Below are positions 22,768 through 59,306 of a stretch of DNA of 64,000 nt, one piece after another. The DNA comes from Octopus vulgaris (lineage: Eukaryota). The position numbers were made by a program, and so were the translations under genes. Within the stretch, counting starts at the first letter, position 1, and each line of letters opens with the position of its first letter. The DNA lies in NCBI GenBank assembly GCA_951406725.2, contig OX597834.1, positions 37,944,001 through 38,008,000 of the forward strand, written 5' to 3'. Below the pieces are notes generated by a model that saw only the letters and a program-made list of their open reading frames with translations, searched no databases and was not told the DNA's origin.

Positions 22768-22992
22768 ATTTCTTTACTACCCACAAGGGGCTAATCACAG
22801 AGGGGATAAACAAGGACAGACAAACGGATTAAGTCGATTACATCGACCGCAGTGCGTAACTGGTACTTAATTTATCGACCCCCGAAAGGATGAAAGGCAA
22901 AGTCGACCTCGGCGGAATTTGAACTCGGAACGTAATGACAGATGAAATACGGCTACGCATTTCGCCCGGCGTGCTAACGTTTCTGCCAGCTC
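22768..22992 (-). mobile_element. SINE family B, young monomer
   Basis: Near-identical reverse complement of about 30895-31120 including the tail ccccttgtgggtagtaaagaaata. Confidence 0.92.
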
Positions 22993-23301: not shown

Positions 23302-23435
23302 TACGTATGTATGTATGTATGAATGTATGTATGTATGTATGTATGTATGTATGTATGTATGTATGTATGCATGTATGAATGTATGTATGTATGTATGTAT
23401 GTATGTATGTATGTATATATTTATATATATGTATG

Positions 23436-23521
<86 letters not shown>

Positions 23522-23524
<3 letters not shown>

Positions 23525-24028
23525 GTGTTTCTAGCACATATTTCGCCTTAATGTACTGATATATGAATAATATATGGCTTGTGCTAGAAATACCAGCGAT
23601 AATAATTAATTTTATTTTATCGCAATTTGACTTGTTTACATATTTCTCGATAAATTTTGAGCGTTAGACAATATACCAGAAATCCCTAGTTTTGTCGGGA
23701 CGTTCTGAGTCTGCGCAGTGATCTGATTAGTTAGAGAGAGCAAATCATTAGAAGCACATGCTTCTAGTGAGTTAGGATCTCAGAACAACAGGGTTCTTAC
23801 CGATGAATTCTCCCTGAGCAAATTTATTATCTTTATTGCTGAAAAGAACGAAACTGCAGTCTAAGAGGAACCGAGTTAGTAAATGTTTTTATTTTCATCT
23901 CACTAAATTTATCTAGCTTCTGTGTTTCTAGCACATATTTCGCCTTAATGTACTGATATATGAATAATATATGGCTTGTGCTAGAAATACCAGCGATAAT
24001 AATTAATTTTATTTTATCGCAATTTGAC
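23522..24028 (+). mobile_element. Hammerhead-containing element with identical 110-bp direct repeats (Penelope pseudo-LTR or retrozyme-like)
   Basis: 23522-23631 identical to 23919-24028; period 397 bp; (TA)n on both sides. Confidence 0.75.
23792..23872 (+). ncRNA. Type I hammerhead-like motif with CCGAUGA core
   Basis: Stem I tctta/taaga; CCGATGA 23800-23806; stem II ttct/agaa plus agcaa/ttgct; GAAAC-TGCA-GTC 23850-23861 (palindromic ACTGCAGT). Confidence 0.7.
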
Positions 24029-24056
24029 GTTTATATATATATATATATATATATAT

Positions 24057-24183
<127 letters not shown>

Positions 24184-24184
24184 C

Positions 24185-24258
<74 letters not shown>

Positions 24259-24269
24259 ATATATATATA

Positions 24270-24515
24270 TTCTTTTATTCTTTCATTCTTTTACTTGTTT
24301 CAGTCATTTTTACTGCGGTCATGCTGGAGCACCGCCTTGAGTCGAAGAAATCTACTCTAGGACTAAATTCTTTGTATGCCAAGTAATTATTCTATCTCCC
24401 TGTTGTTGCCGAACTGCTAAGTTACGGGGATGTAAACGCACCAGCATCGGTTGTCAAGCGATATTGGGGGGGGGACAAACACAAACACACAAACATAAAC
24501 ACATACATACATACA

Positions 24516-24565
<50 letters not shown>

Positions 24566-24655
24566 CAACGGGCTTCTTTCAGTTTCCGTCTACCAGATCC
24601 ACCCACAAGACTTTGGTTGACCCCGGGCTTTGGTAGAAGACACTTGCCCAAGGTG
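24270..24655 (-). mobile_element. SINE family A, 5'-truncated
   Basis: Homologous to other copies. Confidence 0.87.
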
Positions 24656-24820
24656 TATAGCTCTTTTATCTTTTTTACATTTTACGTTTTATATTTTAAT
24701 TTGTTTTCGTTTTCCGTTTTTTTTTAATATTCCGCTTTTTGTATATGCTGCCTTCACAGTTTTTTCACGTTTCTTCTCTTATTCGTCTTTTTTTTTTAGT
24801 TCGTTATGATTATGTGGTTT

Positions 24821-58745: not shown

Positions 58746-59306
58746 TATACATAAATATTTGATATATGTACTTGTAGATATGCATATATATATATGTATT
58801 TATAAATATTTTCGATGTAGAATACGAATATATATACATACATATATATGCATGTGTGTGTGAGTGTGTGTGTGTGTGTGCGTGTAGATGTATATATACG
58901 CATGCACACTAACAAATACATATTATATATAACAAGTATGTACCTATGTAAATATGCGTAGCAGAGTCTCATCTATCACAAATAACCACTGTCACGCGCC
59001 ATATAAAATCATAATCGAAGATTGATTATCATACCCGCACATCGATACTAGATAGTAGCTGAAATGGGTTCCGATGACAAATCACATTGATTGAGGACCT
59101 CGCCCGCGATATCGATAAGCATTTTTTTTTATATGCTTCTTTGTTTTAGTTTTGCTTTTTTTTTTTGTTCTGATTTCTCATTCACTCTACTGATTGCACT
59201 AAATACACAACGTTTCATACGCACACGCAAATAGTCGCCACTCATCAGACATATATGTCTGTTTGTCAGTTCGTATGTCTGCATTTGTATCTATGTATTT
59301 ATCTCA

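Follow-up and report, generated by a model that had tools for sequence, protein, structure and literature searches.

The Octopus vulgaris genome carries a dispersed, non-coding 397-bp repeat with a hammerhead motif and a fixed 3' end in (TA)n, which on balance is probably a non-LTR retrozyme that is non-autonomous and owes its copying to a Penelope-like reverse transcriptase, probably of Neptune type; the 64,000-nucleotide stretch of DNA analysed here (the window) contains a 5'-truncated copy of 1.3 units. This reading rests on the fixed 3' end and scattered 5' ends of the copies, their head-to-tail units and TA flanks, the existence of young subfamilies, the covarying ribozyme stems, and an intact Penelope-like family.

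The insertion occupies positions 23522-24033 of the plus strand and amounts to about 1.29 units, of which the second round is 5'-truncated, and it terminates at the fixed 3' end of the family. Its partial upstream unit (23522-23631, plus strand) is identical over 110 bp to 23919-24028 (plus strand), a period of 397 bp, with no further copy inside the window; a 2-nt deletion directly ahead of the fixed 3' end cuts the exact match off at 24028, and the copy reaches that end at 24033. The insertion is flanked by a (TATG)n/(TA)n microsatellite on the 5' side (about 23305-23522) and by a (TA)n microsatellite, the inferred target, on the 3' side (about 24032-24270); family insertions sit in (TA)n, where any target-site duplication would be hidden. 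The unit has a GC content of 34% and includes a hairpin at 23529-23590 and again at 23926-23987 (plus strand; -16 kcal/mol, z -2.97, with 1 of 200 shuffles equally good). Open reading frames inside the element encode only 21-34 amino acids, and three longer frames are those of the microsatellites. The first-pass annotation thus described the exact 110-bp repeat and its period, the (TA)n on both sides, the absence of an ORF and the internal hairpin correctly, and only the end of the element had to be refined, to 24033. It had also read the 110 bp as a terminal redundancy, a view that is not supported, as 5' ends in the family fall at unit positions 2-396: instead of an LTR, the 397-bp-period repeat is a partial tandem whose 5' end varies, and the overlap of 110 bp therefore marks only the stopping point of a 5'-truncated second round. 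SINE-like repeats (22830-22990, 24290-24480 and 24570-24660), presumably of a type known from octopus genomes, flank the microsatellites, and sequence resembling them recurs beside other family loci.

The single hammerhead motif first proposed for this copy is of type I and lies at 23794-23867 (plus strand), where the Rfam Hammerhead_1 model matches with 25.4 bits and an E value of 6e-4 (509 bases searched), under its gathering score of 34; an Rfam scan of 8 kb does not list Hammerhead_1, its matches being only microsatellite-driven miRNA. Stem I pairs 23794-23799 with 23862-23867, the core at 23800-23806 is a variant with a U4C change, the long stem II (23807-23849) opens with an A-C pair, and stem III consists of 2 bp with a palindromic tetraloop (C3 at 23800, C4 in place of the canonical U4 at 23801, A10.1 at 23807, C11.1 at 23849, G12 at 23850 and C17 at 23861, after which cleavage is predicted). 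An A-C mismatch at the first pair of stem II had been noted as a caveat from the outset, and it is real, but the accompanying U4C change had been missed. Decay of the window copy was considered as the cause of both and rejected, since both are lineage-wide; changes private to this copy occur in the motif only at 23794 and 23824-23825. In none of four variants tested is the hammerhead fold the one of minimum energy (4-10 kcal/mol above it): it lies 10 kcal/mol above the alternative in the window copy and 4-6 kcal/mol above in the three sister variants. Double self-cleavage of the window copy, which has one cleavage site, cannot give rise to a circle, and with a weak ribozyme in addition the copy is probably a dead end; the locus lacks the two consecutive units with complete hammerheads by which a 2026 preprint defines an 'active' retrozyme. 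Elsewhere in the window, 59200-59252 (minus strand) bears, probably by chance, a CUGAUGA...GAAA motif whose stem I is weak and which lacks a good stem II.

The genome searched has a size of 2.8 Gb and is assembled in 227 contigs, of which about 30 are large. The unique 287 bp of the window copy gave 41 matches at 97-100% identity (40 of 718 candidates scored), and three exact motifs gave 100, 225 and 145 matches genome-wide, compared with 0 for reversed controls; from the 225 and the 145, the first 100 each were listed, and 38 and 20 loci were fetched. Sampling by exact motifs and best matches is biased against short and old copies, and the family as analysed numbers at least 138 non-redundant dispersed loci, counted after L010, L016, L020 and L028 (overlaps), L082 (a segmental duplicate of L081) and L141 (70% identity, no library match) were left out. 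A unique locus is rejected by this number, and an assembly artefact is rejected at the level of the family by the dispersed loci together with the presence of family sequence in the sequencing runs of 8 studies. No RNA data set is listed among those that contain the sequence. Contigs were examined from 4 of these runs, three presumed to be RNA, and carry no information on transcription, strand or circularity; a circle and tandem DNA share identical unit-junction sequence. Units measure 395-400 bp, and loci range from 165 bp (0.4 units) to 27.6 units, so that the multimers which it had been suggested to look for do exist; more than one unit is present at 93 of the 138 loci and two or more at 17. 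The 86 terminal full units form nine clusters, with 1.4-2.5% diversity within clusters and 2-13% divergence from the window copy, and several young lineages appear to coexist. The far more divergent L141 (1498-1716, 70% identity), which has internal deletions, suggests that there may be an older layer of the family. Among the sequencing runs, X15 yields variant contigs over 23530-23740 at far higher depth, and record 25 of X5 is a 1425-nt contig at depth 635 in which unit sequence (window 23643-23928, minus strand) is fused with 1138 nt of different origin, so that an abundant transcript may have received an insertion.

Every full unit contains the hammerhead motif, and comparison of units indicates a family ribozyme that is real but mostly blunted. 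The canonical CUGANGA core with G10.1-C11.1 is found in 12 of 86 terminal full units; U4C is found in 47, C3G in 1, and a canonical core with A-A at the base of stem II in 23, and 74 units have U4C, C3G and/or a pair other than G-C at 10.1-11.1. According to the part of PMC3088659 drawn on here, U4C lowers hammerhead activity in vitro yet leaves a viroid able to infect, and mispairing at 10.1-11.1, although on record, is unusual. Pairing in stem I is kept through a change from U-A to C-G in 3 of 12 representatives, and stem II has compensatory variants between lineages (GCCU/AGGC, GUCU/AGAC and AUUCU/AGAAC, read by eye), the covariation consisting of few, lineage-linked events. Two or more hammerhead motifs are present at 23 of the 138 loci, three of which (L152, L160 and L164) are fully canonical. 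At L015 (G000:C6:108.094 Mb), both units have a C3G core private to that locus, which is hard to derive from a self-cleaved circle and argues against a strict dependence on self-cleavage. A search with a short-stem canonical pattern returned 2 unrelated matches; L127 and L128 combine a canonical core and the stem III of the family with a different stem II.

One 3' end, followed by TA, is common to 134 of the 138 loci (133 by script and L031 by eye), the other four being broken. It corresponds to positions 23638 and 24033 of the window, 174 nt past the predicted cleavage site, and a tail of 30-40 nt beyond it is found at none of the 134 normal ends. The 5' ends are scattered over the whole range of unit positions given above, with (TA)3 within 15 nt at 113 of the 138 loci. 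A fixed 3' end with scattered 5' ends amounts to polarised 5' truncation, not to circular permutation; the initial interpretation as a recent retrozyme-like insertion, reverse transcribed from a repeated template, therefore stands in that the copies are multiple and recent, and falls as regards the circularly permuted ends it had led one to expect. Contigs of other runs (records 4, 12 and 19) contain sequence just past the fixed end, as do multi-round copies in their interior, and since multi-round copies read through this end, it must be internal to the RNA template. In the window copy, the putative reverse-transcription start region has an internal counterpart at 23596-23661 (plus strand), with a hairpin (23596-23623) upstream of the inferred start point at about 23638/23639, the equivalent of the fixed 3' end, and a small hairpin (23646-23661) that is never included in terminal units.

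When units are numbered so that predicted cleavage falls between positions 223 and 224, 9 of 78 multi-round copies begin at 224-231 (0-7 nt after predicted cleavage), compared with 1.56 expected; this is the top 5'-end window of the whole unit (scan-corrected P 0.002). With loci chosen by a nearby motif added, the figures are 10 among 87 copies versus 1.71 expected, and six short first-round copies also start there, but were selected by a motif at 231-247. These statistics also omit L012, L013, L048, L049, L061, L071 and L133 (rearranged or broken) and an array of 27 units. Two weaker clusters of 5' ends, at 249-256 and 370-377 (scan-corrected P 0.19-0.25), indicate that structure or TA microhomology also shapes the ends. 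The excess at 224-231 is what one would expect from run-off where the 5' end was cleaved, from stalling at a ligation junction, or from stalling in stem I.

In the mechanism that we favour, multimeric loci would be transcribed and the transcripts cut by the hammerhead, and the monomers would be ligated into 397-nt circles; the GIY-YIG endonuclease of a Penelope element would nick (TA)n, and reverse transcription would begin 174 nt 3' of the cleavage site, at an internal site that is the same in all rounds. The reverse transcriptase would then round the template and stop at random or, above chance, at the cleavage/ligation junction, and the 5' end would be joined within the TA run. On this scheme the window copy would have stopped 115 nt into round two. 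The scheme is weakened by the deviating cores of most units, by the energetically unfavoured hammerhead fold, by the small number of covariation events, by the additional clusters of 5' ends, by the slight resemblance to Penelope sequence and by the tailless 3' ends.

Comparison of units within loci constrains the template. At 40 loci with overlapping units, subfamily-diagnostic states are shared 158 times, and there are 30 within-locus differences with an allele found in at least 4 loci, many of them at misaligned 5' junctions. Mixing of subfamilies occurs at 0 of 16 loci having two or more full units, and 8 of these 16 have variants that are present in all of their own units and absent from all other sampled loci. 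Such homogeneity fits one homogeneous template per insertion, which could be a circle or a homogeneous tandem transcript. The template may have been linear, with transcription reading through a homogeneous tandem locus and the product remaining uncleaved or being cleaved in part, priming being of the same Penelope type and circles absent or a by-product, which we consider possible though rather unlikely. In its favour, run-off from a 5' end left by cleavage would suit the 5' ends found at the cleavage site or directly behind it, the core is weakened in most young lineages (and C3G is present in each of the two units of L015), the 23 loci with two or more hammerhead motifs could be sources, and in the Poseidon experiments covered from PMC11167929, hammerhead mutants had no effect on insertion and unprocessed RNA was the dominant substrate. 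Against a linear template, an ageing source array should transmit unit-specific differences, whereas the small arrays show almost only unit-private differences together with locus-wide private variants; copies of 6-7 units occur in each of two subfamilies, and the variants seen in the 27-unit array of its own subfamily are missing from L133; and mussel retrozymes of 350-390 nt are mostly circular, according to the sections of PMC7229834 used here. The favoured reading, copying from a ribozyme-derived circle, can also be extended, with considerable doubt, to a proposal in which a Neptune-type Penelope enzyme reverse transcribes retrozyme circles in rolling-circle fashion and the copies record this in DNA, by a single internal start, several rounds and stalling at the junction that the ribozyme ligates. 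In this proposal, the hammerhead of the most successful young lineages would have been blunted independently (through U4C with A-C, or through A-A at the base of stem II) because a slow ribozyme would keep the circle closed long enough for copying.

A candidate source of the reverse transcriptase is found in the same genome. GIY-YIG elements gave 148 matches among the best 150 of 6136 candidates scored, and 40 regions were fetched. A young Penelope-like family with RVT_1 and GIY-YIG domains is abundant, and among 20 copies that were fetched for their long frames, 16 have a 781-aa open frame, the linker of the protein having the motif CX4CX2C that PMC8557442, in the part consulted, gives for Neptune and Nematis. 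L107 (1245-4680; G000:C16:20.836-20.840 Mb) and L108-L122 represent this young autonomous Neptune-type family. Thirty distinct 3' ends of the Penelope family are U-rich and then continue into TA, six of them with an optional tail of about 35 nt, and a degenerate hammerhead-like motif lies about 100 nt ahead of the fixed end in (TA)n. Comparison of the unit with the fetched Penelope copies revealed no long homology, and a comparison of the Penelope 3' end plus tail with the window unit was equalled by 253 of 1000 shuffles. In an end-anchored test, the best match lies at most 4 nt from the true end in many pairs; shuffles as good numbered 0-9 of 300 for L160/L153 versus L099/L107, 42-92 of 300 for the window's own subfamily, and 158-279 of 300 with the ends of L102 and L103. 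The last 30 nt of Penelope are closest to the fixed end of the unit in the subfamilies with canonical ribozymes; the homology comparison of 3' ends covered Penelope ends. Partnership of the family with a Neptune-type Penelope element is no more than plausible. The unit was also considered as the pseudo-LTR of an autonomous element, and this was rejected: none of the Penelope protein matches in the flanks of 6 fetched loci is joined to a unit, these being fragments, on the opposite strand, or separated by TA, and at L129 the endonuclease end lies about 2.3 kb away on the other strand.

It is improbable that a LINE, such as one of the R4/Dong or RTE families that target TA, moved the element instead of Penelope. 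Target-primed reverse transcription in general leaves fixed 3' ends and truncated 5' ends, and the homology to Penelope is weak, but the 3' end lies inside a repeated template, with neither poly(A) nor a simple tail of its own, and the sections covered of PMC11167929, PMC4209133 and PMC8557442 present type I hammerheads, partial tandems and initiation at internal sites as characteristic of Penelope elements. A satellite or other DNA-level duplication, or an assembly artefact, with a hammerhead-like motif by chance, deserves next to no credence, for although the patterned shared variants of the 27-unit array are typical of unequal crossing-over and the Rfam score is under threshold, the 138 dispersed loci have different flanks and one polarised end, sister ribozymes are canonical with compensatory changes, and the sequence is present in the runs of 8 studies; a satellite origin of the dispersed copies is refuted, and recombination explains only the later growth of the large array. 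That 11-kb array (L130-L132; G000:C5:112.643-112.654 Mb) belongs to a sister subfamily, has 27.6 units and ends at the usual fixed 3' point; it alone shows patterned shared variants, pointing to later growth by unequal crossing-over; it appears to be a retrozyme insertion turning into a satellite.

The element class is already known, and the window copy alone is ordinary. The family matches retrozymes in its tandem units within 150-450 bp, type I motif, lack of coding capacity and GC below 50%, and Penelope derivatives in having, in the same genome, a candidate autonomous partner with reverse transcriptase and GIY-YIG domains, an internal fixed 3' end, partial tandems and a microsatellite target. 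Metazoan non-LTR retrozymes, as far as described in the part of PMC7229834 used, likewise form head-to-tail units of 150-450 bp, each with one type I hammerhead, have no ORF and a 2-bp stem III with a palindromic tetraloop, and reside with Penelope elements, the closest in size being the 350-390 bp repeats of the mussel Mytilus galloprovincialis; the octopus unit resembles them also in its GC content of 34%. The octopus family differs from them in consisting mostly of dispersed copies of 0.4-2 units with one fixed 3' end in (TA)n, in its very long stem II, and in that most lineages deviate in the core or at 10.1-11.1. Penelope elements were named as a candidate route for the copying of animal retrozymes (PMC7229834, same sections), and retrozymes are argued to be non-autonomous Penelope derivatives in bioRxiv 10.64898/2026.07.22.740005, which in the sections covered still calls the copying mechanism open. 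The retrozymes of that preprint resemble the octopus family in co-occurring with Neptune-type elements and in being rich in monomers, and the cleavage of only 1 of 9 dimers tested there is in line with the weak ribozymes predicted for the octopus family. In Xenopus, known elements could be matched to 24 of 57 retrozyme families, and Penelope accounted for 21 of the 22, according to the same sections, whereas for the octopus unit the search for pseudo-LTR homology gave nothing clear; insertion ends are not mapped in those sections and are mapped in the octopus family.

Among Penelope elements themselves, Poseidon PAc of Anolis initiates internally downstream of its hammerhead at an AT-rich target, as demonstrated in vitro (PMC11167929, in the portion covered), and resembles the octopus family in its internal start 3' of the hammerhead, its AT-rich target and its partial tandems. 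It is, unlike the octopus family, autonomous, and its start lies about 85-92 nt past the cut, with a second start that gives a tail, compared with 174 nt and no tail in octopus. The non-autonomous elements of Chlamys, such as MRC1 (PMC8557442, as far as covered here), share insertions of multiple copies placed head-to-tail, as well as microsatellite targeting, with the family; in contrast to it, they are green algal, have 3' sequence in common with their autonomous partners, and mostly lack canonical hammerheads. A search of the literature found no description of a cephalopod retrozyme family; Repbase and Dfam lay outside this search, so that the repeat may bear another label there, and the words 'hammerhead' and 'ribozyme' are absent from the main text, as available, of the Octopus vulgaris repeat annotation (PMC13282606).

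The family is thus likely to be a new, probably octopus, member of the non-LTR retrozymes, and was likely mobilised by internally primed reverse transcription on circular or multimeric RNA. It gives base-level ends for 138 young insertions and a predicted priming site, and offers in the same genome a candidate enzyme with intact frames and sister ribozymes ranging from canonical to degenerate, by which the priming site, the form of the template and the role of cleavage would each become directly testable. The interest of the family is carried by the mapping of its ends, which makes the route of mobilisation testable.
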